A DNA stretch of 53,016 bases from an uncultured Vicinamibacterales bacterium (GTDB taxonomy: Bacteria; Acidobacteriota; Vicinamibacteria; Vicinamibacterales; JAHECP01). The translations under genes and the position numbers were made by a program. The notes beneath the pieces are model-generated. The model did no database searches. It was given only the letters and a program-made list of their open reading frames with translations, and was not told the DNA's origin. Below, in pieces: positions 3,771-22,283 of the stretch (position 1 is the first letter of the stretch; the number at the start of each line of letters is the position of its first letter). The DNA is taken from the NCBI GenBank assembly GCA_964478975.1, contig CAYZKQ010000001.1, forward strand, positions 1 to 53,016, in the 5' to 3' direction.

Positions 3771-4880
3771 TCACGCGGCGCGCGCCGCGAGGACGAGCTG
3801 CCGGATCATCCACGCGAGCGTCACGCCCGCGGCCGCGAGCAGGACGGCGAACAGCACGATCGCGCCCCACTGGGGTGCGACCCACGAGGCCGGCGCGAAG
3901 CCCGCCGCCTCGATGGCGGCCCGGCGGACGTGGTCCCGCGTCACCACCATGCAGGCGACCGAGAGCACGGCGGCGGCGGCGCCGCCACGGACGAACGGTG
4001 CGGGCCGCGGGGACGCCATGCCTCCGATCATCAACGCCACCGCGGCGACGCCAGCCGCGACGCCGGCGGCGAGGACGGCGCCAGCCGCCGGATCCGCGCC
4101 GCCCACGAGGTGCTCGATCGTCGGGCGCGGCAGCGCGCCCAGCCACCAGAAACCCACCAGAACATTCAGCATCGTGGCCGCGACGAACCACACGCTCCCG
4201 CGGCGCACGGCCCACGTGCCGAAGGCCGGCGCGCGCGACCGGACGCCGAGGCCGCCGAGCGCCGTCGCCAGGCCGGAGACCGCCACGGCGCCGAGCAGCA
4301 TGTGCAGAAACCGTGGCACGAGCGCCGGATCGCCCAGGGCGAGGTGCAGGCCACGCGGATCGGCGTGATACCGCGCGGCGAGCTCGTCGGGGCGCAGCAT
4401 CACGCTCATGTTGGTCGAGTAGATGACGCCGACGCCGATCAGGACGACCGCCACCGCGCCGGCGAGCGCGGCCGAGCAGCGGGACGACGACGTGCCCTGG
4501 AAGGCCAGCGCGTACGCTCCGTAGTAGGCCGCGATGAGCAAGAAGATCACCGACAGCCACGCCCACGCCATCACTACAGAGGAGGCGAAGAAGAGCCGCC
4601 CGTAGAGGACCTGGAGAAACAGCAGCGCGGCGACGCCGAGCGTGACCGTGGCGGCGAAGAGCACGGGCAGCGCCGCCGCCCACCGGCGGGCGAGCTCGCC
4701 GTCGTGGCCGTGGGGCGAACTCCGCGCGCGTACCCGGGCCACCGCGGCCAGGATGGCGCCACCGAGGAGCAGATTCATCGCCAGCGCGTGGAGCAGGAAC
4801 GTCAACAGAAGCCACGCCTGGAGGAACCACACCGGCGCGGGCAGCGGCAGGGGATCGGGTTGAGGCAGGCCGGGGGTCAT
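3771..4880 (-). CDS. Polytopic inner-membrane protein of unknown family (last gene of the por/nfn/cytochrome operon)
   Basis: ATG at 4880 overlaps the stop of the upstream gene (ATGA). It is 369 aa with roughly 9-10 hydrophobic segments (e.g. WFLQAWLLLTFLLHALAMNLLLGGAILAAV, VMAWAWLSVIFLLIAAYYGAYALAF). I could not assign any catalytic motif. Confidence 0.7.
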   Translation of the reverse strand: MTPGLPQPDPLPLPAPVWFLQAWLLLTFLLHALAMNLLLGGAILAAVARVRARSSPHGHDGELARRWAAALPVLFAATVTLGVAALLFLQVLYGRLFFASSVVMAWAWLSVIFLLIAAYYGAYALAFQGTSSSRCSAALAGAVAVVLIGVGVIYSTNMSVMLRPDELAARYHADPRGLHLALGDPALVPRFLHMLLGAVAVSGLATALGGLGVRSRAPAFGTWAVRRGSVWFVAATMLNVLVGFWWLGALPRPTIEHLVGGADPAAGAVLAAGVAAGVAAVALMIGGMASPRPAPFVRGGAAAAVLSVACMVVTRDHVRRAAIEAAGFAPASWVAPQWGAIVLFAVLLAAAGVTLAWMIRQLVLAARAA

Positions 4881-6595
4881 CGATCGCGCTCCTGGATCCG
4901 AGGCGCCTCGAGGCCGGCGAGGTACTCGGCGACCGCCCGCCGTTCGGCGTCGGTGCCCTCGAACGGGGGCATGAGCTCGCTGACCTCGGGCAGCCGGCCG
5001 ATCAGGTCGATGAGCTCGTCGAGCCGGCGGCCGCGGCCGGCGATCGGGAAGTCGCCGCCCGGGCCGTGGCACGCGCCGCAGTGCTCCTCGAAGTAGCGTT
5101 CCCCGAGCGTCGCCGCCGCCGCCCGCGCGGCACTCGCCCCGCCGAGGCTCGCCAGGTACGCCGCCAGCGCGCGGCGCTCCTCGGCGGTCCCGACGAAGGG
5201 GGGCATGCGGCGCCCGCGCCACGTCTCGAGCCGCAGGTCGGGATAATCCCAGCCCACCGGACGGCCGCCGGCGTCGACCGGGCGCGCGAGGCGCGCGAGC
5301 ACGCCGGAGAGCGCGGCCGCGCTCCGGCCACTCACAAGCTTGCGGATTCCGAGGTAGCCGTCGATCGTGTGGCACGCGGCGCACTCGCGCACGAAGAGTG
5401 CGCGTCCAGCCGCGAGCAGGCGGTCAGGGTCGCCGGTGTTCGTCGGTTCCACGCCCGGCCGCCCCCAGAGACTCGCGGCCAGTACCCCGCGCGCGTTCAG
5501 CGCGTCGATCGCGAACGGATCGGGCGCCACCCGGTCCCGGGCCGCGGTCGCGGGCGGTGGCAGGCGCACGCTGTTGACGAACATGTACCGGCCGATCACG
5601 TACGGCTTGCGCAGATCCTCGCGCACCCACTCGGCCCCGCCGACGGCGGCGAGGCCCAGGAGCATGAGCGAGGCGGCGGCGCCGCGCCCGTACCGCCGCG
5701 GACGCCCCCACACGATGGCGGCGGTTCCGGCCGCGAGGAGCGCGCACGCCGCCACGGCCACGCCCGCCGCGCGCTGCGCGACCGGATGGCCGCTCGCCGC
5801 CCCTTTCGCGATCGCACGCACGAGCGCCGCGAGGCCATCTCCGGTCACGCCGAAGATCTCCCGCACCGGCACGCCCGCCCCCGCGGCAGCGGTCAGGTAC
5901 CACACCGTCGCCGCCGGCAGGAGCACCGCGGCTGGGGCGATCCAGCCGAGGCCCGCGTCGCGCGCCACCCGGACTTTGAGCTCCGGGTCCCGCGTCCACG
6001 CGGCGACCGCCAGCGCGTAGAGCCCGGCGAGACCGACGGCCCCGAGCGTCCGGAGCACGAGCGCGGGCCAGTAGGTGGGGTTGAAAAACGCGTCCCACAG
6101 GCTGCGCGTCACGAGCCACCGCCCGGGCGTCAGCATGAAGGTCAGGATCCCGTTGATGATCGCCAGCGACGCCCAGGCGGCCGCGAAGTAGATCCAGCCG
6201 ACCGCCAGGTGCGTCCGGGGATCGAGTCGGTCCCACCCGTAGGCGTAGACCAGGGCCGCGGCGATCTCGACGACGAAGAACGTCCACTCGATCGCCCAGA
6301 CCCAGACGAAGGCGTTGATGAGCGCCGAGGTGGCCGCGGGCTGGACCAGGCCGATCGTGAACCAGATGCCGACGCCCGTCAGGGCGCCGAACACCAGCGT
6401 CAGGAGCACGAAGAAGCGGCTGAGCCGCCGGACGAACGCGAGGAGCGCCGCGTCCTCCCGCCGGCGCGCCCGGCGTTCGGCCAGGACGAGGAACAGGCCG
6501 CCGCCGACCGCGAAGTGCGACACGAAGACGTGGACGATCGCGACCCCCGCGATGAGCAAGCCTGCGGCCGGGAGCTCCCAGATCGGGTAGTTCAT
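4877..6595 (-). CDS. Cytochrome bd subunit-I (CydA)-like membrane domain fused to two C-terminal class-I c-type cytochrome domains
   Basis: ATG 6595 overlaps the porB stop (ATGA). The N-terminal polytopic part has IVHVFVSHF, AIEWTFFVVE and GWDRL, which align by eye with the E. coli CydA helix 1-4 core. The C-terminal part has two CxxCH sites (CAACH, CGACH). Each is followed by MPPF-GT-EERRA-A-YLA, indicating a tandem domain duplication. Confidence 0.8.
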   Translation of the reverse strand: MNYPIWELPAAGLLIAGVAIVHVFVSHFAVGGGLFLVLAERRARRREDAALLAFVRRLSRFFVLLTLVFGALTGVGIWFTIGLVQPAATSALINAFVWVWAIEWTFFVVEIAAALVYAYGWDRLDPRTHLAVGWIYFAAAWASLAIINGILTFMLTPGRWLVTRSLWDAFFNPTYWPALVLRTLGAVGLAGLYALAVAAWTRDPELKVRVARDAGLGWIAPAAVLLPAATVWYLTAAAGAGVPVREIFGVTGDGLAALVRAIAKGAASGHPVAQRAAGVAVAACALLAAGTAAIVWGRPRRYGRGAAASLMLLGLAAVGGAEWVREDLRKPYVIGRYMFVNSVRLPPPATAARDRVAPDPFAIDALNARGVLAASLWGRPGVEPTNTGDPDRLLAAGRALFVRECAACHTIDGYLGIRKLVSGRSAAALSGVLARLARPVDAGGRPVGWDYPDLRLETWRGRRMPPFVGTAEERRALAAYLASLGGASAARAAAATLGERYFEEHCGACHGPGGDFPIAGRGRRLDELIDLIGRLPEVSELMPPFEGTDAERRAVAEYLAGLEAPRIQERDR

Positions 6596-7476
6596 CGCGC
6601 GGCGTGGCTCAGGATGTCGTGCCAGCGCTGGTCGACCGCCTGGCGCACCTGTTCCAGGGCGTCCGGGTCGTTCACCAGGTCGCGGAAGCGACCCTGGCCT
6701 CGCAGATATTCCTCGATCGCTACCGGCGCCGGGTTGACGGTCAGCCGCCAGGTGCGGCCGTCCTCGACCTCGACGAGGGGGAAGACGCGCGCGGCGACGG
6801 CGAGGCGCACGTAGCGGATCGCGTGCTCCGAGGGAATCTTCCACCCGGGCGGACAGGGCGAGAGCAGGTGGATGAAGCGCGTCCCGGTGACCCGCCTGGC
6901 GCGCTGGAGTTTCGCCACCAGGTCGTCCGGATACGCGACCGTGGCCGTGGCGGCGTACGGGATCCGGTGCGCCACCATGATGGCGAGCAGGTCCTTCTTC
7001 GGCTGGGCCTTCCGCCCCGGCGTCGTGGTCGTCCACGCGCCCATCGGCGTGGCCGAGCTCCGCTGGATCCCGGTGTTCATGTAGGCTTCGTTGTCGTAAC
7101 AGATGTAGATGAAGTCCTCGTTCCGCTCGGCGGCGGCCGAGAGCGCCTGGATCCCGATGTCGAACGTGCCGCCGTCGCCGGCCCACGCGACGACCGTCGT
7201 CTCGCGGTCGCCCTTGAGGTCCAGCGCCGCGCGGACGCCCGACGCGGCGGCCGCCGCCGACGCGAACGGCGTGTGCATGACGGGCACCCCGGCGGCGCTG
7301 TAGGGCGACGGCCCGTCGATGATCGACCAGCAGCACGCCGGGATGACGAGCACGGTCCGGCGGCCGAGCGCCTTGAGGACGAGGCGCATGGCGAGGGCCG
7401 CGCCGCAGCCCGCGCACCCGAGGTGCCCGGGGGCGAGGATCTCGACGTCGGGAACGGCGTAGGTGGCCTGCGTCAT
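6592..7476 (-). CDS. porB: 2-oxoacid:ferredoxin oxidoreductase beta subunit (TPP-binding)
   Basis: TPP motif WAGDGGTFDIGIQALSAAAERNEDFIYICYDNEAYMNTG. Cys ligands occur in GCAGCG, PACCW and SPCPPGW. ATG 7476 overlaps the porA stop. Confidence 0.9.
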   Translation of the reverse strand: MTQATYAVPDVEILAPGHLGCAGCGAALAMRLVLKALGRRTVLVIPACCWSIIDGPSPYSAAGVPVMHTPFASAAAAASGVRAALDLKGDRETTVVAWAGDGGTFDIGIQALSAAAERNEDFIYICYDNEAYMNTGIQRSSATPMGAWTTTTPGRKAQPKKDLLAIMVAHRIPYAATATVAYPDDLVAKLQRARRVTGTRFIHLLSPCPPGWKIPSEHAIRYVRLAVAARVFPLVEVEDGRTWRLTVNPAPVAIEEYLRGQGRFRDLVNDPDALEQVRQAVDQRWHDILSHAAR

Positions 7477-8630
7477 GGCTTCAACCCCACCCACAGGCTG
7501 TCGTGCGACGGCCGGTCGTGCGCCCTAGCATCGTCGAGCACCGCGTCGAGCGTATCGGGCGTCACGTCGCGGCCGCCGAGGCCGGCGATATACGAGAACA
7601 CGACCGGCGCGGACGGCTGGTTGCAGAACGCCGCGCGGATCTCGGACGCCATGATGCCGCCGTGGCCGAACGAGAGGTTCCGGTCCACGACGGCGAGCTT
7701 GGCCGCCCGGCCGAGCAGGCGGCGCACGTGGTCGAAGGGGAAGGGCCGGAACAACCGGATCTTCGCCAGCCCGACGCGCTCGCCCCGCTGGCGCCGGGCG
7801 TCCACGACGCCGCGGGCCGTGCCGGCGATGGTCCCGGCGGTGACGAGGAGCAGGTCGGCGTCCTCGGCGCGGTAGGTGTCGAGGATCGGGTGATAGCGCC
7901 CGAAGCGCTCGCCGTACTCGCGGGCCGCCGCGTCGGCCACGCCCACCGCCGCCTGCAGGGCGCGCTCCATCCGGGCCCGCAGCTCCATGTAGCCGTCACC
8001 CGACGGGAGCCCGCCGAAGGCCCGCGGCTGGTCGACGTCGAGCGCGTAGGGCGGGGCGAACGGCGGCAGGTAGTCGTCGACGGCCGCCTGGTCGGGGATC
8101 GCGACCGGCTCTGAGGTGTGCGACAGGAAGAAGGCGTCAAGACACACCATCGCCGGCATCAGGACGCGCTCGGCCACCTTGAAGGCCTGGATGATCGTGT
8201 CGAGCACTTCCTGGTTGTTCTCGCAGTAGTACTGGATCCAGCCCGTGTCGCGCTGCGAGAGGCTGTCGGTCTGGTCGGCGAAGATGTTCCAGGGCGAGCC
8301 CAACGCCCGGTTCACGTTGGCCAGGACCACCGGCAACCGCGCGCCGGCGCACCAGTGCAGCATCTCGTGCATGTAGGCGAGGCCGTGCGAGGAGGTGGCG
8401 GTGAAGGCCCGGAGCCCCGCTTGCGACGCGCCGGCGCAGGTGGCCAGCGCGGAGTGCTCCGACTCGACGGCGACGAACCGCGCGTCGAGGCGCCCGTCGG
8501 CGCACATCTCCGAGAGCAGCTCGACGACCCCAGAGGACGGCGTGATGGGGTAGGCGGCGATCACGCGCGCCCGCGCGAGCTGCACCGCGTACGAAATCGC
8601 GTGCGTGCCCTCGATGACCTTCGTCGTCAT
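7473..8630 (-). CDS. porA: 2-oxoacid:ferredoxin oxidoreductase alpha subunit
   Basis: The N-terminus MTTKVIEGTHAISYAVQLARARVIAAYPITPSS is the classic PorA/VorA/KorA start. It is 385 aa. ATG 8630 overlaps the stop of the upstream fusion gene. Confidence 0.9.
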   Translation of the reverse strand: MTTKVIEGTHAISYAVQLARARVIAAYPITPSSGVVELLSEMCADGRLDARFVAVESEHSALATCAGASQAGLRAFTATSSHGLAYMHEMLHWCAGARLPVVLANVNRALGSPWNIFADQTDSLSQRDTGWIQYYCENNQEVLDTIIQAFKVAERVLMPAMVCLDAFFLSHTSEPVAIPDQAAVDDYLPPFAPPYALDVDQPRAFGGLPSGDGYMELRARMERALQAAVGVADAAAREYGERFGRYHPILDTYRAEDADLLLVTAGTIAGTARGVVDARRQRGERVGLAKIRLFRPFPFDHVRRLLGRAAKLAVVDRNLSFGHGGIMASEIRAAFCNQPSAPVVFSYIAGLGGRDVTPDTLDAVLDDARAHDRPSHDSLWVGLKP

Positions 8631-10339
8631 CGCGGTTCCTCGGGCAGAAGCGTCAGGGCGCCGCGGGGGCACTCGGCGGCGCAGATGCCGCAGCCCTTGC
8701 AGTGGGCGAGGTCGATCGTGTAGCGCCCGGCGCCGTCGCGCGCGACGGCAGCGTCGGGGCAGAACACCCGGCAGTTGTCGCAGCTCGTGCACGCCCCGCA
8801 CGTCACGCAGCGCCGCGCTTCGGCGACGGCCTGCGCCCACGCGAGCCCGCCCACCACCTCGGTGAAATCGCGGACGGCCTGCGCCGGCGGGACGAGCGGC
8901 GGCCGAACGCGGGGCGCGCGCGGGACATAGAAGAAGTTGAGGTCGCCCGGCCCGACCCGCACCGCGTCCGCGGCGTCGCCGAGCGCCCGACCCGCAAGCC
9001 ACGCGTCGATCGCCTCCGCCGCGCGCCGGCCCGACCCGATCGCCTCCACCACCGTGCCCGCCCCCGTCGCCGCGTCGCCGCCGGCGAAGACCGCCGCCCG
9101 GCTCGTGCGGCCCCAGCGGTCTGCCAGCAGACGTCCGCCCGCCGCCTCGACCAGGTCCGCGACCAGCGAGGTCTCCACCTCCTCGCCGATCGCGGTGAAC
9201 GCGTGGTCGGCGGCCAGCTCGAAGGTGCTCCCCGGGATGGGCTCCGGCCGGCGCCGGCCGGACGCGTCCGGTTCCCCGGGGCGCATCCGCTGGCACTCGA
9301 CGGCGGCGAGCCGTCCGCCCCGTTCGACGAAGCGCACCGGCGCCGCGTGGAAGATGAACGCGATCCCCTCAGCTTCCGCCTGCGCGATCTCGTCGGGGTG
9401 CGCCGGCATGTCCTCGCGGGCGCGCCGATACACGATCGTCGCCGCCGCCCCCAGCCGCACCGCCGCCCGGGCCGCGTCGAGGGCCGTGTTGCCGCCGCCC
9501 ACCACGACCGCGGGGCCGCCGAGCGAGGCCGCCGATCCCGCGTTGACCTGGCGCAGAAACTCGACGCCAGACCGGACGCCGTCCAGGTCTTCCCCAGGTA
9601 CCCCGACGCGCCGGGACCGCTGCGCCCCGATCGCCACGAACACCGCCTGGGAGTCCCGCAGCACGTCGAGCGGCCGCCCGGCCTCCACCCGGACGCCGCC
9701 GACGAAGCGGATCCCCATCGCCCGCAGCAGGTTGATCTCCTCGTCCAGCACCGCGCGCGGGAGGCGGTAGGCCGGAATTCCGTAGCGCAACATGCCGCCG
9801 GGCTCGGGCATCGCGTCGACGACCGTCACCCGGTGGCCGCGCCGGGCGAGGTGGTAGGCCGCCGTCAGGCCCGCCGGTCCCGCGCCCACGACCGCCACCG
9901 CGACACCCGACCCGCCGGCGACCTCCGCGCCGGGAAACCGCCGGCGTCTGGCTTCGTCGGCAATCGCACGCTCCACGGCATGGATCGCGACCGGCTCGTC
10001 GAACGCCAGGCGGTTGCACTCGCGCTCGCACGGGTGATAGCACACGCGCCCGCAGACGCCGGGCAGCGGGTTGTGCGCCCGGATGGTGCGCCAGGCCGCC
10101 TCGGCGTCGCCCGCGGCGGCGAGCGCGAGAAACGCCCGCACGTCGGTGCCCGCCGGGCAATCGAGATTGCAGGGCGAGGGCCGGGTCACATAGACCGGCC
10201 GGAACGTGCGCCAGTGGCCCGTCTGGAGCTCCCGGGTGCTCCGGAGCGAGACGGACATCGGCGGCCCCGGCGCGACCTCGTCGACCGGCCCGATCCGAAC
10301 CGCCGCCCGTGCCGCCGCGTCGTTCACCGTGTCTGCCAT
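8627..10339 (-). CDS. GltD/NfnB-family NAD(P)H flavoprotein fused to a PorD-type 2x[4Fe-4S] ferredoxin domain
   Basis: The N-terminus has QTGHWRTFRPVY, resembling the PorD TGxWRxFxP arm. Next comes the GltD Fe-S region (CNLDCP...NPLPGVCGRVCYHPCERECNR), with FAD fold VVGAGPAGL and NAD(P)H fold VVGGGNTALD. The C-terminus has CVTCGACTSCDNCRVFCP and CKGCGICAAECP ferredoxin motifs. It is 570 aa. Confidence 0.85.
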   Translation of the reverse strand: MADTVNDAAARAAVRIGPVDEVAPGPPMSVSLRSTRELQTGHWRTFRPVYVTRPSPCNLDCPAGTDVRAFLALAAAGDAEAAWRTIRAHNPLPGVCGRVCYHPCERECNRLAFDEPVAIHAVERAIADEARRRRFPGAEVAGGSGVAVAVVGAGPAGLTAAYHLARRGHRVTVVDAMPEPGGMLRYGIPAYRLPRAVLDEEINLLRAMGIRFVGGVRVEAGRPLDVLRDSQAVFVAIGAQRSRRVGVPGEDLDGVRSGVEFLRQVNAGSAASLGGPAVVVGGGNTALDAARAAVRLGAAATIVYRRAREDMPAHPDEIAQAEAEGIAFIFHAAPVRFVERGGRLAAVECQRMRPGEPDASGRRRPEPIPGSTFELAADHAFTAIGEEVETSLVADLVEAAGGRLLADRWGRTSRAAVFAGGDAATGAGTVVEAIGSGRRAAEAIDAWLAGRALGDAADAVRVGPGDLNFFYVPRAPRVRPPLVPPAQAVRDFTEVVGGLAWAQAVAEARRCVTCGACTSCDNCRVFCPDAAVARDGAGRYTIDLAHCKGCGICAAECPRGALTLLPEEPR

Positions 10340-10347
10340 GACGGCCT

Positions 10348-10932
10348 CTATCGCCGCGCGCGGGCCGCAGAGGCCAGCGCGGGACGCCCCCGCACGGCGC
10401 CGAACGCTTCCCGCGCCGCGGCCTGATTCGCCTCCGGCTTGACCGGCACCAGCTCGGGAATGGCCTCGAGCAGGGTCTCGAGGCGGACGAGCCGCGTGAC
10501 CGCCGCGAACGCGCCGGCCATCGCCGTGTTGACGATGGGGTTCGTGCGCGTGCCGAGGCCGTGGGTGAGCGCGATCCCCGTCGCGTCGCACGTCGCCACG
10601 CTGAAGTCGTCCGGCAGGCCCAGCGCGTCGGGCCCCCGGCTGGTGTTCACGACGATCCACCCGCCCGACTTCAGCCCGGCGGTCACGTCGGTCGCCTCCA
10701 GCAAGCCGGCGTCGAGCACGATCACGTGGTCCGGCTCGTAGACCTGGTAGTGCGCCGTGATGGGCCCCTGGTCCGCGCGCAGAAACGCCGCCACTGGCGC
10801 GCCGGTCCGTTCCGCCCCGAACGCGGGAAACGCCTGCACCTGCCAGCCCTCGCGGAACAGCGCCGTCGCCAGCAGCTTCGACGCCATCACCGCGCCCTGA
10901 CCGCCGCGCCCGTGCACCCGAATCGCCACCAC
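10348..10932 (-). CDS. porG: 2-oxoacid:ferredoxin oxidoreductase gamma subunit
   Basis: Starts VAIRVHGRGGQGAVMASKLLA (GRGGQG motif) and is 194 aa, the typical gamma subunit size. GTG start lies 3 nt after the stop of the upstream gene. Confidence 0.9.
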   Translation of the reverse strand: MVAIRVHGRGGQGAVMASKLLATALFREGWQVQAFPAFGAERTGAPVAAFLRADQGPITAHYQVYEPDHVIVLDAGLLEATDVTAGLKSGGWIVVNTSRGPDALGLPDDFSVATCDATGIALTHGLGTRTNPIVNTAMAGAFAAVTRLVRLETLLEAIPELVPVKPEANQAAAREAFGAVRGRPALASAARARR

Positions 10933-10935
10933 GGA

Positions 10936-12354
10936 TCACCACCCGTCGGGAAAGCCGTCCCGCAGATACCGGTCGATCGCCCGCGCCGCCCGCCGGCCGG
11001 CCCCCATCGCCGAAATCACCGTCGCGCCGCCCGTGACGATGTCGCCCCCGGCGAAGACGCCTTTCTTATAGGTCGCGCCCGTCCGCTCGTCGGCCTCGAT
11101 GTAGCCGCGGCGGTTCACCCGGAGGTCCGGCGTCGTGGACCGGATGAGCGGGTTCGCGCCCTGGCCGACCGCGAACACCACCGTGTCGACCTCGAGGTCG
11201 AACTCCGACCCGGGCACCGGGACGGGGCTCCGGCGGCCGGAGGCGTCCGGCTCGCCGAGCGCCATCCGGATGGCGCGCATCGCGCGCACGCGCGACCGCT
11301 CGTCGCCGAGGATCGCGACCGGCGCCGCCAGCAGGATGAACTCGACCCCTTCTTCTTCGGCGTGCGCGATCTCTTCCTCGCGCGCCGGCATTTCGTCGCG
11401 GGAACGCCGGTAGACCAGATACGCGTGCTCGGCGCCGAGCCGGAGCGCGGTCCGGACCGCGTCCATCGCCGTGTTGCCCCCGCCCACCACCGCGACCCGG
11501 CGCCCCCGGACGATGGGCGTGTCAGTTTCCGGAAAGCGGTAGGCCTGCATCAGGTTCGACCGCGTCAGGAACTCGTTCGCCGAGTAGACCCCGACCAGGT
11601 TGATGCCGGGAATCTCGGGGAAGAACGGCAGGCCGGCGCCCGTGCCGATGAACACCGCCTCGTACCCGAGCTCGCTCATGAGCTCGTCGACCGTGAACGT
11701 CCGCCCGATGACGTGGTTCGTCCGGATCTCCACGCCCAGGCGCTTGAGGGCCTCGATCTCGCGCTCGACGATCGCTTTCGGCAGCCGGAACTCGGGGATC
11801 CCGTACATCAGGACGCCCCCCGGCTTGTGGAGCGCCTCGAAGATCGTCACGCTGTGGCCCAGCCTGGCCAGGTCCGCCGCGACCGTCAGGCCCGCCGGAC
11901 CGGATCCCACGACCGCCACGCGGTGTCCCGTCGGCGGCGGCGGCGGCCCGGTGTCCGACCAGTTCATCGCCGCGGCATAGTCCGCGACGAACCGCTCGAG
12001 CCGCCCGATGGCGACGGGCTCGAACTTCACGCCCAGCGTGCATCGTTTCTCGCACTGGTCTTCCTGCGGGCACACGCGCCCGCAGATGGCCGGGAGCACG
12101 TTCTTCTCGTAGACCGTGCGAAACGCCGCCTCGAACGCGCGCTCGGCCACCTGCTGGACGAACCGGGGAATGTCGATTTCCACGGGACACCCGGCGACAC
12201 ACGGCTGGTTCTTGCAGAGGATGCAGCGATTCGCTTCCTGCACGGCGAGGTCCGGGGTGTACCCGGTGGCGACTTCCTCGAACCGCCGCCGCCGCACCTC
12301 GGGGTCGAGGCACGGCATCGGGGTTTTCGTCTTCTGCCCGATCTTCTTCGCCAC
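10936..12354 (-). CDS. NADPH-dependent glutamate synthase small-chain-like oxidoreductase (NfnB/SudA/GltD family)
   Basis: Fe-S motifs CILCKNQPCVAGCP and CGRVCPQEDQCEKRC. Dinucleotide folds VVGSGPAGL and VVGGGNTAMD. It is 472 aa. Confidence 0.9.
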   Translation of the reverse strand: MAKKIGQKTKTPMPCLDPEVRRRRFEEVATGYTPDLAVQEANRCILCKNQPCVAGCPVEIDIPRFVQQVAERAFEAAFRTVYEKNVLPAICGRVCPQEDQCEKRCTLGVKFEPVAIGRLERFVADYAAAMNWSDTGPPPPPTGHRVAVVGSGPAGLTVAADLARLGHSVTIFEALHKPGGVLMYGIPEFRLPKAIVEREIEALKRLGVEIRTNHVIGRTFTVDELMSELGYEAVFIGTGAGLPFFPEIPGINLVGVYSANEFLTRSNLMQAYRFPETDTPIVRGRRVAVVGGGNTAMDAVRTALRLGAEHAYLVYRRSRDEMPAREEEIAHAEEEGVEFILLAAPVAILGDERSRVRAMRAIRMALGEPDASGRRSPVPVPGSEFDLEVDTVVFAVGQGANPLIRSTTPDLRVNRRGYIEADERTGATYKKGVFAGGDIVTGGATVISAMGAGRRAARAIDRYLRDGFPDGW

Positions 12355-12357
12355 GGT

Positions 12358-13209
12358 TCACCTCGGCATCAGCGCCGGCGTCTGCGGGGGAGCCTGGCAC
12401 CGCTCGAGCGCCAGGCGCTCCTGCTCGCGATAGGCCGTGAGGCGCGCGGCGAGCTCGGCGAAATCCACCTGGTGACCGTCGAACTCCGGCCCGTCGACAC
12501 AGACGAACTTCGGCCGCCCGCCCACCGTCACCCGGCAGCCGCCGCACATGCCGGTGCCGTCGATCATGATGGGGTTGAGGCTGACGATCGTCTTGAGGCC
12601 CAGCGGCCGCGTCAGCTCGCACACCGCGCGCATCATCGGGAGCGGCCCGATGGCGACCACCTCGTCGAAGCGACAGCCCTCGCGCAGCAACGCGCGCAGC
12701 GCGTCAGGGACGAGGCCGGGCATCCCGTACGACCCGTCGTCCGTCGTCACGATGACGCGGTCGGCCACGGCCCGCATCTCCGCTTCGAGAATCACGAGCG
12801 CGCGGGAGCGGGCCCCGATGACCGCCGTCACGCGGCCGCCGGCCGCCTTGAAGCCGCGCGCGATGGGGTAGGCCACGGCCGCGCCGATGCCGCCCCCGAT
12901 CGCGCACACCGAGCGGCCCGGCGCGATCTGCGTCGGCTGGCCCAACGGCCCGGCGATGTCGAGAATCGTGTCGCCCGGCTCGAACGCGTTCAGCTCGCGC
13001 GTCGTCTTGCCGACACCCTGGACGATGAGCGCGATCGCCCCGCTCGGCGGGTCCGCGTCGGCGATCGTGAGGGGAATGCGCTCCCCCGTTTCCCGGAGAC
13101 GGACGATCACGAACTGGCCGGGGCGGCGTTTGCGGGCGATGTGCGGGGCGTCGATCCAGAAGCGGACGATGTCGGGTGCAAGCACCTGCTTGCTGAGGAT
13201 ACGGTGCAC
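12358..13209 (-). CDS. Ferredoxin-NADP+ reductase-like FAD/NAD(P)- and [2Fe-2S]-binding protein (NfnA/SudB/PyrK family)
   Basis: VHRILSKQVLAPDIVRFWIDAP aligns with the usual N-terminus of NfnA/PyrK. C-terminal cluster motif GTGMCGGCRV...FVCVDGPEF. GTG 13209 was chosen as the start because the upstream part of the ORF is low-complexity. Confidence 0.8.
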   Translation of the reverse strand: MHRILSKQVLAPDIVRFWIDAPHIARKRRPGQFVIVRLRETGERIPLTIADADPPSGAIALIVQGVGKTTRELNAFEPGDTILDIAGPLGQPTQIAPGRSVCAIGGGIGAAVAYPIARGFKAAGGRVTAVIGARSRALVILEAEMRAVADRVIVTTDDGSYGMPGLVPDALRALLREGCRFDEVVAIGPLPMMRAVCELTRPLGLKTIVSLNPIMIDGTGMCGGCRVTVGGRPKFVCVDGPEFDGHQVDFAELAARLTAYREQERLALERCQAPPQTPALMPR

Positions 13210-15711: not shown

Positions 15712-16185
15712 ATGCTGCGATTGTCCAAGCGTGCCGATTACGCGCTCATTGCGATGCGGCATCTGGCCCTCAACGCGGACCGCGGCTGGGCCAGCGCCCG
15801 GGAGATCGCCGAGGCGTACCACGTCCCGCTGGAGCTGCTGGCGAAGGTGCTGCAGCGGCTGGTGCGGAAAGGGCTGCTGGCCTCGCACCAGGGGGTCCAC
15901 GGGGGGTACGAGCTGGCGCGCCCGGCGACGCACATCTCGGTGGCGCAGGTCATCGAGGCGATCGACGGGCCGCTCACCATGACGGCGTGTTCGGAGGCGG
16001 ACGATTCGTGCGACCAGTTTCCACACTGCAACATCCGCGACCCGCTCTGGCGCATCAAGGACCGGCTGGTCGAGGCGCTCTCGACGTGCTCGATCCAGGA
16101 GATGGCGACCGAGAGCGCGCCGGCGCCGGCGGGCGGGGCGGCACCGGTGCGGGTCGTGATGGGGCCGTCGAAGGCGACGGCGTGA
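15712..16185 (+). CDS. Rrf2-family Fe-S-binding transcriptional regulator (IscR/SufR-like)
   Basis: The N-terminus MLRLSKRADYALIAMRHLA is the Rrf2 signature. Cluster ligands CSEADDSCDQFPHC. It is the first gene of the suf operon. Confidence 0.9.
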   Translation: MLRLSKRADYALIAMRHLALNADRGWASAREIAEAYHVPLELLAKVLQRLVRKGLLASHQGVHGGYELARPATHISVAQVIEAIDGPLTMTACSEADDSCDQFPHCNIRDPLWRIKDRLVEALSTCSIQEMATESAPAPAGGAAPVRVVMGPSKATA

Positions 16186-16200
16186 GGGAGCGGACGGGTC

Positions 16201-16530
16201 ATGATCCAGGTGAGCGAGAACGCGTCGCGGCAGATCGTCAAGCTCAAGGCGAAGCAGCAGTTGCCGCCGTCGGGCGGCTTGCGCGTCGGGGTGAAGGCCG
16301 GCGGCTGTTCGGGCTTCGAGTATGTCTTTGCGTGGGAGCCGGCTCCCCGCGACACGGATATCGTGGTGGAAGGGTCGGGCGGCGCGCGGGTGTTCGTCGA
16401 CCCGAAGAGTCTCCGGCTGCTCGCGGGCACGGTGCTGGACTACGACACGAGTCTGCTCAGCCGCGGGTTCGTCCTGGCGAATCCGAACGCCAAGAGCACG
16501 TGCGGGTGCGGGCAGTCGTTCAGCGTCTGA
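16201..16530 (+). CDS. sufA: A-type Fe-S cluster carrier (HesB/IscA/SufA family)
   Basis: GGCSGFEY motif and C-terminal CGCGQSF. It is 109 aa. Confidence 0.88.
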
Positions 16531-16546
16531 CGGGACGGAGAAGACG

Positions 16547-17992
16547 ATGAGCACAGCGGTTCGGACGATCGAGGAACTGGCCACGCGGGAATACAAGTAC
16601 GGGTTCTACACGCCGGTCGAGGAGGACAAGGTTCCGCCGGGGTTGAACGAGGACGTCATCCGGCTCATCTCCGCGAAGAAGCAGGAGCCGGACTGGTTGC
16701 TCGAGTGGCGGCTCAAGGCCTACCGGGCGTGGCTCACCATGGCGGAGCCGCGGTGGGCGAACATCACTTACGGGCCGATCGACTACCAGGCGATCAGCTA
16801 CTACTCGGCGCCCAAGCGCCGGCCGACCTACAACAGCCTGGACGAGGTCGACCCGGAGATTCTGCGGACCTTCGAGAAGCTCGGCATTCCCCTCGAGGAG
16901 CAGAAGCGGCTGGCGGGGGTGGCGGTCGACGCGGTGTTCGATTCGGTGTCGGTGGCCACGACGTTCCGGGAGAAGCTCGCCGAGCTGGGGATCATCTTCT
17001 GTTCGTTCTCGGAGGCGGTGCGCGAGCATCCGGACCTGGTGCGGCAGTATCTGGGGTCTGTAGTCCCCTACACGGACAACTTCTTCGCGGCGCTCAACTC
17101 CGCCGTCTTCAGCGACGGGTCGTTCGCCTACATCCCGAAGGGCGTGCGCTGTCCGATGGAGCTGTCCACTTACTTCCGCATCAACGCGATGAACACCGGC
17201 CAGTTCGAGCGCACCCTGATCGTCGCGGACGAGGGCGCGTCGGTGAGCTACCTCGAGGGCTGCACGGCGCCGATGCGCGACGAGAACCAGCTCCACGCGG
17301 CGGTGGTCGAGCTGGTCGCGCTGGACGAGGCGACCATCAAGTACTCGACCATCCAGAACTGGTATCCCGGGGACAAGCAGGGCCAGGGCGGCATCTACAA
17401 TTTCGTGACCAAGCGCGGCAAGTGTCAGGGGCGGCGGTCGAAGATCACGTGGACGCAGGTCGAGACCGGCTCGGCCATCACGTGGAAGTACCCGAGCTGT
17501 CTGCTCATCGGCGACGAGTCCGTCGGCGAGTTCTATTCGGTCGCCACGGTGAACCACTACCAGCAGGCCGACACGGGCACGAAGATGATCCACGTGGGCC
17601 GGCGCACGAAGAGCACGATCGTCTCGAAGGGCATTTCGGCGGGGCACGGCCAGAACACCTACCGCGGGCTCGTCCGCATCGGCAAGCACGCCCAGTACGC
17701 GCGGAACTACTCGCAGTGCGACTCGCTGCTCATCGGGGACCAGTGCGGGGCGCACACCTTCCCGTACCTGGACATCCGCAACAGCACGGCGCGGGTCGAG
17801 CACGAGGCGTCGACGTCGAAGATCGGGGAGGACCAGATCTTCTACTGCCGCCAGCGCGGCCTCGGGACCGAGGACGCGGTCAACCTGATCGTCAGCGGCT
17901 TCTGCAAGGAAGTCTTCCGGGAGCTGCCGATGGAATTCGCCGTCGAGGCCCAGAAGCTGCTGAGCGTGAGCCTGGAAGGGAGTGTCGGATAA
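16547..17992 (+). CDS. sufB: Fe-S cluster assembly scaffold SufB
   Basis: 481 aa with highly conserved SufB blocks ([51 protein letters not shown]). Confidence 0.95.
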
Positions 17993-17998
17993 CGCATC

Positions 17999-18766
17999 AT
18001 GCTGGAGATTCGAGATCTGAAGGCGTCGGCCGAGGGCCGCGAGATCCTGCACGGCGTCAGCCTGTCGGTGCGGGCGGGCGAAGTCCACGCGATCATGGGC
18101 CCGAACGGCTCGGGCAAGAGCACGCTCGCGCGGGTGCTGGCGGGACACCCGGGCTACGAGGTGACCGCCGGGACGGTGCTCTACGAGGGGCGGGACCTGC
18201 TGGCGATGGACCCGGAAGAGCGCGCGCGCGAGGGGCTGTTCATGGCGTTCCAGTACCCGGTGGAGATCGCCGGGGTGAACAACGCCTACTTCTTGAAGGC
18301 GGCGCTCAACGCGCTCCGCAAGCACCGCGGCGAGCCGGAGGTGGACGCCATCGAGTTCATGACCCTCATCCGCGAAAAGGCGAAGCTGCTGGAGCTCGAC
18401 CCCGCGATGCTCAACCGCCCGGTCAACGAGGGGTTTTCGGGCGGCGAGAAGAAGCGGAACGAGATCTTCCAGATGCTGGTGCTCGAGCCGAAGCTCGCGA
18501 TCCTCGACGAGACGGATTCTGGCCTCGACATCGACGCCCTCAAGGTGGTGGCCAACGGCGTCAACGCCATGCGGAGCCCCAGCCGGGCGATCGTGGTGGT
18601 GACGCACTACCAGCGGCTGCTCAACTACATCGTGCCCGACATCGTCCACGTGCTCGTCGACGGGCGCATCGTCCGCTCGGGCGACAAGACCCTGGCCCTC
18701 GAGCTCGAAGAGAAAGGGTACGGCTGGGTCGAGGCGGAAGCGGCTGGCGCCGCCGCGCGCAGCTAG
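17999..18766 (+). CDS. sufC: Fe-S cluster assembly ATPase SufC
   Basis: Walker A GPNGSGKST, FSGGEKKRNEI, LAILDETDSGLD. Confidence 0.95.
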   Translation: MLEIRDLKASAEGREILHGVSLSVRAGEVHAIMGPNGSGKSTLARVLAGHPGYEVTAGTVLYEGRDLLAMDPEERAREGLFMAFQYPVEIAGVNNAYFLKAALNALRKHRGEPEVDAIEFMTLIREKAKLLELDPAMLNRPVNEGFSGGEKKRNEIFQMLVLEPKLAILDETDSGLDIDALKVVANGVNAMRSPSRAIVVVTHYQRLLNYIVPDIVHVLVDGRIVRSGDKTLALELEEKGYGWVEAEAAGAAARS

Positions 18767-18774
18767 GGGGAGCG

Positions 18775-20100
18775 ATGGCGACGTTCGTCGAGGCGGCCCG
18801 CGACGCCTATCTCGCCGAGTACGCGCGCGCCCGCCAGGCCGACCGCCTCGGGCCGGCCTGGCTGGCCGAGGTGCGCGCGCGCGCCGTCCGCGCCTTCGAG
18901 CAGCTCGGTTTCCCCACGACCAGGGACGAGGAGTGGCGCTTCACGAACATCGCGCCCATCACCACGCGCGTGTTCGTCCCGGCGGATCCGGCGGGCCGGC
19001 GCGCCGTGACGCGGGAGGACGTGGCCCGTGTGACCCTCCCGGGCGCCGGCCGCGTCCGGGTCGTCTGCGTCAACGGCCGCTATGCCCCGGAACTCTCTGA
19101 CCTGGACGGGCTGCCGCAGGGCGTCGAAGTGCGCGGGCTCCGGGAGGTCCTCGAGGCCGAACCGGCCCGCCTGCAGCCCTGGTTGGCCCAGGTCGCCGGC
19201 TTCCGCAGCCACGCCTTCGCTGCGCTCAACACGGCGCTCTTTGACGACGGCGTGTTCGTCTTCGTGCCGCCGCACGCCGTCGTCGACGAGGCGATCGAGG
19301 TGGTGTCGGTCACCTTCGCCGGCGGCGCCGACGTGGTGGCCCACCCGCGGGTGCTCGCGGTGGCGGCCGAGGACAGTCAGGTGCGGCTGGTCGAGCAGCA
19401 CGTGGGCGTCGGCGACGGCGTCTACTTCGCCAACCCGATCAGCGAGGTGGTGGTCGGCGACCACGCCGTCGTGGACCACTACCGCGTCCAGCGGGAGGCC
19501 GTCGGCGCGTTCCACCTCGGGGGCCTGCACGCGCGCGTCGGGCGCGCCGCGAGCTTCACCTCGCACGCGGTGTCGCTGGGGGCAGCGCTCGCCCGGCACG
19601 ACCTCTCGGCCGAGCTCGGCGGCGAGGGCGGCGAGTGCACCCTGAACGGCCTGTACCTCGCCGACGGCGACCGGCTGGTGGACCACCACACGACGATCGT
19701 GCACGCGCAGCCGCACTGCGACAGCCACGAGGTCTACAAGGGGATCCTGGCGGGTCGCGCGCAAGGCGTGTTCAACGGGAAAATCGTCGTCCGGCCCGGG
19801 GCGCAGAAGACCGACGCCAAGCAGACCAACCGGGCCCTGCTGCTCTCCGACGAGGCGCAGATCAACACCAAGCCGCAGCTCGAGATCTTCGCCGACGATG
19901 TCAAGTGCACCCACGGGGCGGCGGTGGGGCAGCTCGACGAGGACGCGATCTTCTATCTCCGCTCGCGGGGCCTGGGCCTCCGGGAGGCGCGCCGGCTGCT
20001 CGTGCAGGCGTTCGCGGGCGACATCCTCAACCGTGTGCGCCTCGAGGGACTGCGCCACGCGCTCGAGGCGGCCATGCTGCGCCTGCTGCCGGAGCCATGA
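18775..20100 (+). CDS. sufD: Fe-S cluster assembly protein SufD
   Basis: 441 aa with the SufD C-terminal beta-helix blocks ([34 protein letters not shown]). Its stop overlaps the sufS start. Confidence 0.92.
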
Positions 20101-21365
20101 GCGAGCGTCTCGGTGGGGTGGCGGCCGTCCCGGCGGTCTGGCACGCGCCGCTGGACGTCGCGCGCGTCCGGGCCGATTTCCCCATCCTGCGCCAGACGGT
20201 GCGGGGCCGCCCGCTGGTCTATCTCGACAACGCCGCGACGACGCAAAAACCCCAGGCGGTGATCGACGCGCTGCGGAAGGCGTATGCCGAGGAGAACGCC
20301 AACATCCACCGCGGCGTGCACTTCCTGAGCGAGCTGGCCACGGCCGCGTTCGAAGACGCGCGCCGCGCCGTCCAGCGGTTCATCAACGCCGCCGACGCCC
20401 GCGAGATCGTGTTCGTGCGGGGGACCACCGAAGCGATCAATCTCGTGGCGGCGACCTTCGGCCGCCAGCGCGTGGGCCCCGGCGACGAGATCGTGCTCTC
20501 CCACATGGAGCACCACTCCAACATCGTCCCGTGGCAGTTGCTGTGCGAGGAGACAGGGGCGCGGCTGCGGGTCATCCCGGTCACGGACCGGGGCGAGCTG
20601 GACCTGGAGGCGTTCGAGCGGCTCGTGGGGCCGCGGACGCGGATCGTCTCGATCGTCCACGTGTCGAACGCCCTCGGCACGGTCAACCCGGTCCGGCGGG
20701 TGGTCGAGATCGCGCACCGCGCGGGCGTGCCGGTCCTGGTCGACGGGGCGCAGGCCGTCGCCCACCTGCCCGTGGACGTCCAGGCGATCGGGTGCGACTT
20801 CTACGCGTTCTCCGGCCACAAACTGTTCGGCCCGACGGGCATCGGCGTGCTCTACGGGCGCCTGCCCCTGCTCGAGGCGATGCCCCCGTACCAGGGCGGC
20901 GGCGACATGATCCGGTCGGTGACCTTCGAGCGGACGACCTACAACGACGTCCCGCACAAGTTCGAGGCGGGGACGCCGAACATCGCCGGCGCGATCGGCC
21001 TGCGCGCCGCGATCGATTACCTGCGCCGGCTGGACTTCGGCGCCGTCGCCGCGCACGAGCACGACCTGCTCGCCTACGCGACCGAGCGGCTGCGGGAGAT
21101 CCCCCGCGTCCGGATCATCGGGACGGCGCCGGAGAAGAGCGCCATCGTGTCCTTCGTGCACGAGCACGTGCACCCCCACGACATCGGGACGATCCTCGAC
21201 CACGAGGGCGTGGCCATCCGGACCGGCCATCACTGTTGCCAGCCCCTCATGCAGCGGTTCGGCGTGCCGGCGACGGCCCGCGCGTCCTTCGCGGTCTACA
21301 ACACCCGCGAGGAAGTCGACGCGCTCGTCGCCGCGATGCAGAAGGTCCGCGAGGTCTTCGGCTGA
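20097..21365 (+). CDS. sufS: Cysteine desulfurase SufS (group II)
   Basis: PLP lysine in [11 protein letters not shown], catalytic Cys in [13 protein letters not shown] overlap with sufD. Confidence 0.95.
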
Positions 21366-21817
21366 TGTCCGATCTCCGGGAGCTCTATCAGGAAGTCATC
21401 CTCGACCACAACCGGCGCCCGCGGAACTTCCGACGGCTGCCCGACGCCAACCGGCGGGCCGAGGGCTTCAACCCCCTGTGCGGAGACCGCCTGACGCTGT
21501 TTCTCAAGGTCGACGGCGACGTGATCCGCGAAGCCGGGTTCCAGGGGTCGGGCTGCGCGATTTCGAAGGCGTCCGCCTCGCTCCTGACCGAGGCCGTCGC
21601 GGGCAAGACCGTGGCGGCCGCGCGGGCGATGTTCGAGCGGTTTCACCGGATGGTCACGAGCGCGCCGGACAGCACGGAGGATTTCTCGGACCTCGGCAAG
21701 CTCGCCGTGCTCGCCGGCGTGCGGGAGTTCCCGGTGCGGGTCAAGTGCGCCAGCCTGGCGTGGCACACGTTGAAGGCGGCGCTGGAGGCGAGGGCGGAGC
21801 CGGTGTCGACGGAGTAG
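21365..21817 (+). CDS. sufU: SUF-system NifU/IscU-like sulfur-transfer/scaffold protein SufU
   Basis: Three conserved Cys in NPLCGD, GSGCAIS and VKCASL. The start overlaps the sufS stop (TGATG). Confidence 0.9.
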   Translation: MSDLRELYQEVILDHNRRPRNFRRLPDANRRAEGFNPLCGDRLTLFLKVDGDVIREAGFQGSGCAISKASASLLTEAVAGKTVAAARAMFERFHRMVTSAPDSTEDFSDLGKLAVLAGVREFPVRVKCASLAWHTLKAALEARAEPVSTE

Positions 21818-21860
21818 GGGTCCGCAAGCCGGGCCTGTCGGCCCCGGGGAGACCCTCGAG

Positions 21861-22283
21861 GTGCCCATGACGAACCATCGTCGCGTCGATGTGTGGTTGC
21901 AGGCCGAGCAGCCGCCCGGGCCGTCGGGGTCGTCCCCGGGGGCGGGGCTGGCCGGGCTCGTGAGCGATCCGCTCAAGACGCTCGAGCTCAAGCCGCACGT
22001 CGTCGAGGCGCTCTCGACCGTCTACGACCCGGAGATTCCCGTCAACATCTACGAGCTCGGGCTCATCTACGACATCGTGATCGACGCGAACGGCGTCGTG
22101 GGGATCCGCATGACCTTGACGGCGCCGGCGTGTCCGGCGGCCCAGACCCTGCCGCTCGAAGTCGAGCACAAGATCCGGCGCATCCCCGGGGTCACCGACG
22201 TGAGGGTCGAGGTCGTCTGGGAGCCACCGTGGGATCGCGACAAGATGTCGGACGCGGCGAAGCTGGCGCTCGGACTCTTGTGA
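21861..22283 (+). CDS. sufT: DUF59 / SufT-like Fe-S assembly protein with an N-terminal extension of about 40 aa
   Basis: VYDPEIPVNIYELGLIY and LTAPACP motifs. The start is ambiguous between GTG 21861 and ATG 21867. Confidence 0.85.
   Translation: MPMTNHRRVDVWLQAEQPPGPSGSSPGAGLAGLVSDPLKTLELKPHVVEALSTVYDPEIPVNIYELGLIYDIVIDANGVVGIRMTLTAPACPAAQTLPLEVEHKIRRIPGVTDVRVEVVWEPPWDRDKMSDAAKLALGLL

Follow-up and report, generated by a model that had tools for sequence, protein, structure and literature searches.

Two adjacent minus-strand genes of an uncultured Vicinamibacterales bacterium, located in a 53,016-nucleotide stretch of contig CAYZKQ010000001.1 (hereafter, the window), are best explained as encoding a two-subunit member of the OR-C1 group of the cytochrome bd superfamily, with a predicted cytochrome c:O2 oxidoreductase function; we put the probability of this explanation as a whole at about 0.68. 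It is very probable that the genes at 4877-6595 and 3771-4880 are an OR-C1a/OR-C1b pair, and their sequence features somewhat favour cytochrome c:O2 oxidoreductase activity on a bd scaffold. The group was delineated by Murali, Gennis & Hemp (2021; bioRxiv 10.1101/2021.01.16.426971), who split the bd superfamily into qOR, OR-C and OR-N and defined OR-C1a by a CydA core of approximately 8 transmembrane (TM) helices that has lost the quinol site and is extended at its C-terminus by a periplasmic haem c part; the paralogue encoded beside it, OR-C1b, would in their view make up a single enzyme together with OR-C1a. The two genes and the domains of the first product are as follows.

4877-6595, minus strand: OR-C1a, CydA-like subunit I with two C-terminal c-type haem domains (translation; Pfam PF01654, PF13442, PF00034)
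5597-6595, minus strand: membrane domain of OR-C1a, aa 1-333, 8 predicted TM helices (alignments, hydropathy, DSSP, lysine plus arginine (K+R) bias)
5144-5413, minus strand: class-I cytochrome c domain 1 of OR-C1a, aa 395-484; CAACH at 405-409 (nt 5369-5383), candidate Met ligand M464 in MPPF
4919-5116, minus strand: class-I cytochrome c domain 2 of OR-C1a, aa 494-559; CGACH at 506-510 (nt 5066-5080), candidate Met ligand M542 in MPPF
3771-4880, minus strand: OR-C1b, predicted second subunit, 369 aa, polytopic (family alignment, hhalign, AlphaFold2 (AF2), Foldseek, adjacency)

Because the G+C content of the window is approximately 72%, the raw lists of open reading frames (ORFs) are full of shadow ORFs, and genes were called from the G+C content of third codon positions (GC3). 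By this procedure, 4877-6595 is one real gene (GC3 0.93) that encodes a 572-aa protein with the N-terminus MNYPIWE. Residues M1, N2, P4 and W6 are invariant in a family alignment (A2) of 28 diverse homologues from at least 10 phyla, which also served as the OR-C1a family profile, and the start is therefore correct. It occupies the seventh position in a series of eight tightly packed minus-strand genes, with ATGA overlaps at both of its junctions, that is, with the upstream PorB gene and with the OR-C1b gene.

The CydA-like subunit and its c-type haem domains

The original prediction, made by eye from the sequence, had proposed a CydA-like N-terminal core and had named a profile search as a check; that search gave a significant match to Pfam Cyt_bd_oxida_I (E=8.5e-15, 54.7 bits against a cut-off of 26.2), which spans residues 15-201 and covers profile positions 6-199 of 418, that is, the first four helices only. 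The family profile extends the similarity to residues 10-392 of the Geobacillus CydA chain 5DOQ_A (E=6e-10), and hhalign aligns the family with this protein with a probability of 95.6%. Both the profile alignment and hhalign pair H22, E103 and E110 of OR-C1a with H21, E101 and E108 of 5DOQ_A; H22 corresponds to H19 of E. coli CydA, and E103/E110 correspond to E99/E107, with the 6-residue spacing. These residues, which include the helix-1 histidine and the two conserved glutamates that had been picked out by eye, are invariant in the 28 homologues, as are W78, Y117, E322, R325, E326, R329 and P331, with Y119 and S143 being nearly invariant. The GWDRL sequence, originally read as an exact bd signature, does align with WDRF of Geobacillus CydA but, among the homologues, is limited to Acidobacteriota and so is not a family-wide feature.

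The elements that had gone unrecognised by eye are indeed missing. In the profile alignment with 5DOQ_A, a large deletion takes the place of the Q-loop, and the alignments place neither His nor Met at the positions of the haem b558 ligands H186 and M393; the H186 position is taken by the invariant R182 (or by L181). The membrane domain also has an invariant motif, E-W-V-R-E-D-L-R-K-P (aa 322-331, window 5603-5632), of which E322-x2-R325-E326-x2-R329-x-P331 aligns with the W...E..RQPW motif of CydA (W441/E445/R448 in E. coli, 'E.GRQPW'). If this alignment is right, the ligand of the second high-spin haem is retained in OR-C1a. Taken together, the alignments show a subunit that keeps the CydA core with the residues predicted to hold or serve the high-spin haem O2-reducing site (H22, E103, E110, E326 and R329), and that, by the same comparison, no longer has a Q-loop, a quinol site or the b558 ligands.

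The C-terminal part of the protein consists, as originally read, of two tandem class-I cytochrome c units, and the 120 closest homologues retain both CxxCH motifs together with M464 and M542. One domain is a paralogue of the other (34% identity, E=4e-8); the NCBIfam and Pfam matches of these domains to the dihaem c subunits QcrC and CcoP are weak and far under the family cut-offs. Hydropathy, DSSP on a low-confidence model and K+R counts agree on eight TM helices in OR-C1a; the model in question, a single-sequence AlphaFold prediction of the 572-aa protein (predicted local distance difference test, pLDDT, 44.7), was used for helix counts only. Family-wide, the mean K+R content is 3.1, 2.1, 3.8 and 1.5 in the odd loops compared to 0, 0, 0.8 and 1.3 in the even loops, and therefore an N-out/C-out orientation is predicted. 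This orientation agrees with that of CydA, where TM8 ends at the periplasmic side. Both c-haem domains are accordingly placed by prediction in the periplasm, the outcome for which the original prediction had looked in its topology check, and the two His/Met domains, periplasmic in this predicted topology, stand in place of TM9. The cytoplasmic loops of OR-C1a are 7-15 residues long in the topology prediction, and no Fe-S or flavin domain was found with Pfam.

Proteins with this architecture are abundant. At 90% identity, the scored candidates include more than 2000 protein clusters of this kind, mostly from Acidobacteriota and annotated 'c-type cytochrome', and 218 clusters at 50% identity have E<=1e-30. 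The number of c haems per OR-C1a in the sampled loci is 1 (14 loci), 2 (26), 3 (1) or 8 (32). The 8-haem form was observed in L044 (10001-12634) and approximately 30 further loci from Bacteroidota, Ignavibacteria, Calditrichota, Thermodesulfovibrio and Desulfovibrionales; its layout comprises the membrane domain, the first class-I c domain, an approximately 240-aa spacer and a further seven CxxCH motifs that give cytochrome c3/c7-like matches. In these 8-haem clades, the partner gene is located upstream, and so is, in 11 loci, a gene for a PsiE-family membrane protein. In one relative (L030, 2964-4594), the OR-C1a gene is interrupted: a stop follows the first 226 aa, which are 76% identical, and beyond it homology resumes at 52% identity, so that this locus is a pseudogene or an assembly chimera.

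The second subunit and the placement of the pair

The product of the gene at 3771-4880 has no Pfam or NCBIfam match, and BLASTP of OR-C1a against OR-C1b yields no match (E=9.9), so that the kinship of the two proteins is visible only by profile-profile and fold comparison. By these methods, the protein that had seemed 'unrelated-looking' to the original prediction proves to be a relative of its neighbour. hhalign of the OR-C1b family alignment (A1) against the OR-C1a membrane domain (A2) gives a probability of 97.7% (E=2e-12, 274 columns) and places H31 of OR-C1b onto H22. An AF2 model built from 78 homologues (pLDDT 92.3) has 9 TM helices, the sequence contains no haem c motif, and in a Foldseek search of the PDB with this model the top 17 hits are all cytochrome bd chains, with CydA first (TM-score ~0.65), followed by CydB. 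Two of the 29 OR-C1b family members reach PF01654 unaided, and a third homologue search, with alignment A1, retrieved only further acidobacterial 'hypothetical proteins'.

The OR-C1b gene adjoins the OR-C1a gene in all 77 testable loci of the 83 that had been fetched by then; each of the 6 loci without it is truncated by a contig end. Acidobacteriota, Chloroflexota and Armatimonadota have it downstream of the OR-C1a gene; Bacteroidota, Ignavibacteria, Calditrichota and Nitrospirota have it upstream, as do Verrucomicrobiota at a distance of 2.7 kb. There is no conserved third gene beside the pair: for the 162-aa and 169-aa ORFs that follow the partner gene in L003 and L087, neither the other loci nor the window contain a homologue, and clustering of the flanking ORFs, noisy from high-GC shadow ORFs, yielded only clade-local neighbours beyond the a/b pair. 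In one acidobacterial metagenome-assembled genome (MAG; MFD05942.bin.1.436, L017, 10001-12598), an in-frame ORF of 865 aa is an a-b fusion that consists of the OR-C1a membrane domain with the first c domain, a Pro/Ala-rich linker and a complete OR-C1b, the second c domain being missing. Such a fusion is topologically feasible and fits a and b being one enzyme; it could also be an assembly artefact, being a single MAG case.

Collectively, the profile comparison, the fold and the adjacency show OR-C1b to be a CydA paralogue that has diverged, has the bd fold and stands in place of CydB. The original statement that the oxidase is encoded without cydB thus holds in the sense that there is no Cyt_bd_oxida_II (PF02322) match among the 41 called proteins of the window scanned against Pfam, OR-C1b included, but not in the sense that a second subunit is missing, since the next gene encodes one. 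Within OR-C1b, H31 (window 4788-4790), located in helix 1 and aligned with H22/H19, is invariant; H193 (window 4302-4304) is at least 90% conserved and lies ten residues past a DP motif, which is the same spacing as that between the NP motif of CydA and its b558 ligand H186. OR-C1b might therefore bind haem itself, unlike CydB, which we consider a lead only. Alignment A1 contains no conserved Glu in TM3 and no equivalents of E99/E107.

These features agree in detail with the published description of the group. The OR-C1a row of Supplementary Table 6 (bioRxiv 10.1101/2021.01.16.426971) lists 8 TM helices, H19, E99, E107, S140, two tyrosines, W at the E74 position and a replaced H186, and it is matched in the window protein by H22, E103, E110, S143, Y117, Y119, W78 and L181/R182. 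According to the same source, OR-C1a proteins contain from 0 to 8 CxxCH motifs, are widespread in Acidobacteria and probably accept electrons from cytochrome c, and the listed OR-C1b proteins are mostly haem-free 'hypothetical proteins' beside OR-C1a, including those of Thermoanaerobaculum and Chloracidobacterium. All the sequence hallmarks of OR-C1a are present in the window protein, namely CydA helices 1-4, the H19/E99/E107 equivalents, the site losses, the C-terminal CxxCH motifs and the adjacent OR-C1b; the partner, likewise, is derived from CydA, adopts the fold of a bd subunit, keeps the H19 equivalent and has lost E99/E107. Membership in the OR-C clade was judged by such sequence features together with the identity of the membrane domain to the 8-haem proteins as a proxy; this identity is 34-45% for the proteins of Desulfovibrionales, Thermodesulfovibrio and Bacteroidota that are typical of OR-C1a. 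Given the presence of these features and the abundance of the architecture, the window pair is a further member of a known, biochemically uncharacterised family, which corresponds to the bd-like families with fused c haems that the original prediction mentioned as noted by comparative genomics. A structural paper of 2026 still treats OR-C merely as a phylogenetic class.

Proposed function and the neighbouring oxidoreductase operon

Under the mechanism that we propose, OR-C1a and OR-C1b would form a heterodimer in which a periplasmic donor, for example a cytochrome c, either soluble or in the membrane, that has been reduced by a bc-type complex or by alternative complex III, would feed the covalent His/Met c haems. 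The two c haems would pass electrons to high-spin b/d-type haems held by H22 and E326, where O2 would be reduced to water, with protons probably supplied from the cytoplasm through the E103/E110 channel. A relevant arrangement is found in Verrucomicrobiota, where a compact four-gene operon comprises OR-C1b, Rieske, cytochrome b and OR-C1a genes; the subunit pair thus brackets the Rieske and cytochrome b genes, which points to a route from quinol via a bc-type module and haem c to the bd-type site. In L031 (7294-11386), and also in L033-L036 and L045, all from Verrucomicrobiota MAGs, the order is OR-C1b, Rieske [2Fe-2S] protein, cytochrome b and a one-haem OR-C1a, so that a bc-type quinol-oxidising module sits inside the OR-C1 operon of these bacteria. 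In the parts of Murali et al. available to us (bioRxiv 10.1101/2021.01.16.426971), pet genes are described with OR-N, with no mention of them for OR-C. The window itself contains no genes for a bc complex, alternative complex III, a haem-copper oxidase or cytochrome c maturation; its only other respiration-related genes encode a cytoplasmic-type molybdopterin oxidoreductase (47458-49467, minus strand) and a type II NADH dehydrogenase (49565-50872, plus strand). Searches of the window for Rfam families and tRNAs found none.

The complex might instead not be an O2 reductase at all but rather function in NO or H2O2 detoxification or in exchanging electrons with an acceptor in the periplasm or outside the cell. 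Many members come from anaerobic or sulfate-reducing lineages and have 8 haems and c3/c7-like domains, the family lacks the b558 site, and the literature search found no biochemical data on any member. Nevertheless, we regard such a role as quite unlikely, considering that the equivalents of H19, E99 and E107 and an E445-like Glu are invariant across the family and that Murali et al. (bioRxiv 10.1101/2021.01.16.426971) read the family as oxygen reductases.

Upstream of the pair, positions 6592-13209 of the minus strand encode an unusual pyruvate-type 2-oxoacid oxidoreductase (POR) operon that starts with NfnA/NfnB-like genes and in which each gene was assigned by gene call, Pfam and NCBIfam.

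12358-13209, minus strand: NfnA-like FAD/[2Fe-2S] protein, first gene of the operon
10936-12354, minus strand: NfnB/GltA-like protein
10348-10932, minus strand: PorC
8627-10339, minus strand: GltD-like NAD(P)-binding flavoprotein carrying a fused PorD ferredoxin domain (570 aa, NF009410)
7473-8630, minus strand: PorA
6592-7476, minus strand: PorB

The NCBIfam models for Por, Vor and phenylglyoxylate enzymes all score under their cut-offs on this operon. The PorD-GltD-like fusion and the NfnAB-like genes suggest an enzyme that is NAD(P)-linked rather than purely ferredoxin-linked. The junction at which PorB and OR-C1a overlap by ATGA recurs in relatives at 76% (L001/L002), 77% (L084/L085) and 65% (L086) identity, and is absent in L087 (63%), L019 (65%), L003 (59%) and all of the approximately 75 more distant loci. 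Thus, the POR linkage is confined to a shallow acidobacterial clade, the unit that is conserved being the a/b pair, and the genes at 6592-13209 are context and no family-wide part of the oxidase.

This distribution bears on the donor suggested by the original prediction, in which the genomic link pointed to POR. The physical part of that suggestion stands, PorB being directly upstream with an ATGA overlap in a run of eight tightly packed genes and with the same junction in the relatives at 76%, 77% and 65% identity. The functional part, whereby POR or reduced ferredoxin would be the direct electron donor and the bd-like protein the terminal acceptor, is very unlikely. The linkage is absent in homologues at 63-65% identity (L087, L019) and in the distant loci, while the a/b pair is always kept and, elsewhere, is accompanied by genes for Rieske and cytochrome b proteins; both POR and ferredoxin belong to the cytoplasm, whereas the c haems are predicted to be periplasmic; the short cytoplasmic loops of OR-C1a offer no docking domain any more than an Fe-S or flavin one; and the POR cluster has NAD(P) modules of its own in the GltD-like subunit fused to PorD and in the NfnAB-like proteins.

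We read the translational coupling of POR and oxidase in this clade as co-regulation, not as direct electron transfer. Scavenging O2 is an established function of bd oxidases, and an indirect link, with the oxidase co-expressed with the O2-labile Por/Nfn enzymes as an O2 scavenger (respiratory protection) that is fed by the ordinary respiratory chain, is possible, albeit with the odds clearly against it. The coupled junction is kept across 65-77% identity, the operon encodes many Fe-S proteins, and a divergent Rrf2 regulator and a SUF Fe-S assembly cluster are close by; the evidence on the other side is that this is gene order alone, in an arrangement seen in only a few metagenomic relatives, and that matches to FNR-type sites occur at chance level only. 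The Rrf2/SUF locus (15712-22283, plus strand) comprises an Rrf2-family regulator followed by an A-type carrier, SufB, SufC, SufD, SufS, a NifU/SufU-like protein and FeS_assembly_P; it lies approximately 2.5 kb upstream of the Por/Nfn operon on the opposite strand, beyond an M20 peptidase gene, and the same arrangement is found in L001. A version specific to this Vicinamibacteria-like clade, in which OR-C1 is hard-wired through translational coupling to the O2-labile, NAD(P)-linked Por/Nfn operon as a dedicated O2 scavenger and, in addition, a b558-like haem is held by H193 of subunit b with the O2 site on subunit a, is rather unlikely; if true, it would imply a split of cofactors between a and b unlike any solved bd oxidase.

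Several observations weigh against a two-subunit cytochrome c oxidase of the kind that we favour. The structural model of OR-C1a is poor (pLDDT ~45), and hence the case for 8 TM helices comes from hydropathy, charge bias and homology. Table S6 of Murali et al. (bioRxiv 10.1101/2021.01.16.426971) lists the equivalents of E445 and W441 as absent in OR-C1a; the published table and the alignment obtained here disagree on these two residues, and the second high-spin haem site, as read from sequence, is uncertain. The OR-C1b family profile matches no PDB chain by sequence, and its alignment with the single Geobacillus CydA is weak (probability of 27%, TM1-2 only). Our literature search on OR-C found no biochemical study and no purified member, so that haem content and attachment, O2 reduction and the formation of an a/b complex are inferences throughout. 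Finally, that the PorB coupling is kept across 65-77% identity hints at a functional tie that the proposed mechanism does not explain.

If the proposed mechanism holds, the OR-C enzymes, which are common in soil Acidobacteriota and many nominal anaerobes, would be cytochrome c oxidases built on a copper-free bd scaffold, outside the haem-copper superfamily. The window locus does not define a new class; what it provides is a clean and compact example that consists of two genes and has only two c haems, and it supports the identification of the neighbouring 'hypothetical protein' as the missing second subunit. The neighbouring POR genes should not serve for inferring the electron donor.

Comparison with known systems

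Compared to the published OR-C1 reference, an 8-haem Desulfovibrio protein, the window protein is a 2-haem acidobacterial form. Its partner has 9 predicted TM helices, whereas Murali et al. (bioRxiv 10.1101/2021.01.16.426971) state 8 for OR-C1b, and the linkage to a Por/Nfn operon is not described by these authors. The POR cluster of the window, for its part, resembles the NAD-linked phenylglyoxylate dehydrogenase, the matches being under the family cut-offs.

The likeness to the quinol-oxidising CydAB enzymes (qOR1-3; E. coli 6RKO/6RX4, Geobacillus 5DOQ) lies in the core residues of subunit a and in the predicted fold of subunit b. Among solved structures, the best sequence match of OR-C1a is the Geobacillus qOR3 enzyme, which fits the shared 6-residue spacing of the glutamates. 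Unlike CydAB, the window pair lacks the Q-loop, the quinol site, the His/Met ligands of b558, a PF02322 CydB and CydX; it has two c-haem domains instead of TM9, and its second subunit is a CydA-like paralogue. In this last respect, the pair is similar to CydAA' of Caldivirga maquilingensis (qOR4a/qOR4b), which also consists of two CydA paralogues, the second of which keeps the H19 equivalent and is devoid of the proton-channel glutamates. However, CydAA' is a quinol oxidiser without haem c and arose by an independent duplication.

The OR-N proteins of Nitrospirota and Chloroflexota that have petABD partners share with OR-C1 the lack of a quinol site and the proximity of Rieske and cytochrome b genes, which for OR-C1 is seen in Verrucomicrobiota. 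They differ in having 10-14 TM helices, no fused haem c and a retained H186 equivalent, and OR-C1a of the window departs from OR-N on all three counts. The tandem class-I His/Met module, on the periplasmic face and predicted to feed a membrane oxidase, resembles CcoP, the dihaem c subunit of cbb3 oxidases, and the dihaem QcrC; in OR-C1a, however, this module is fused to a bd-type core rather than to a haem-copper core.

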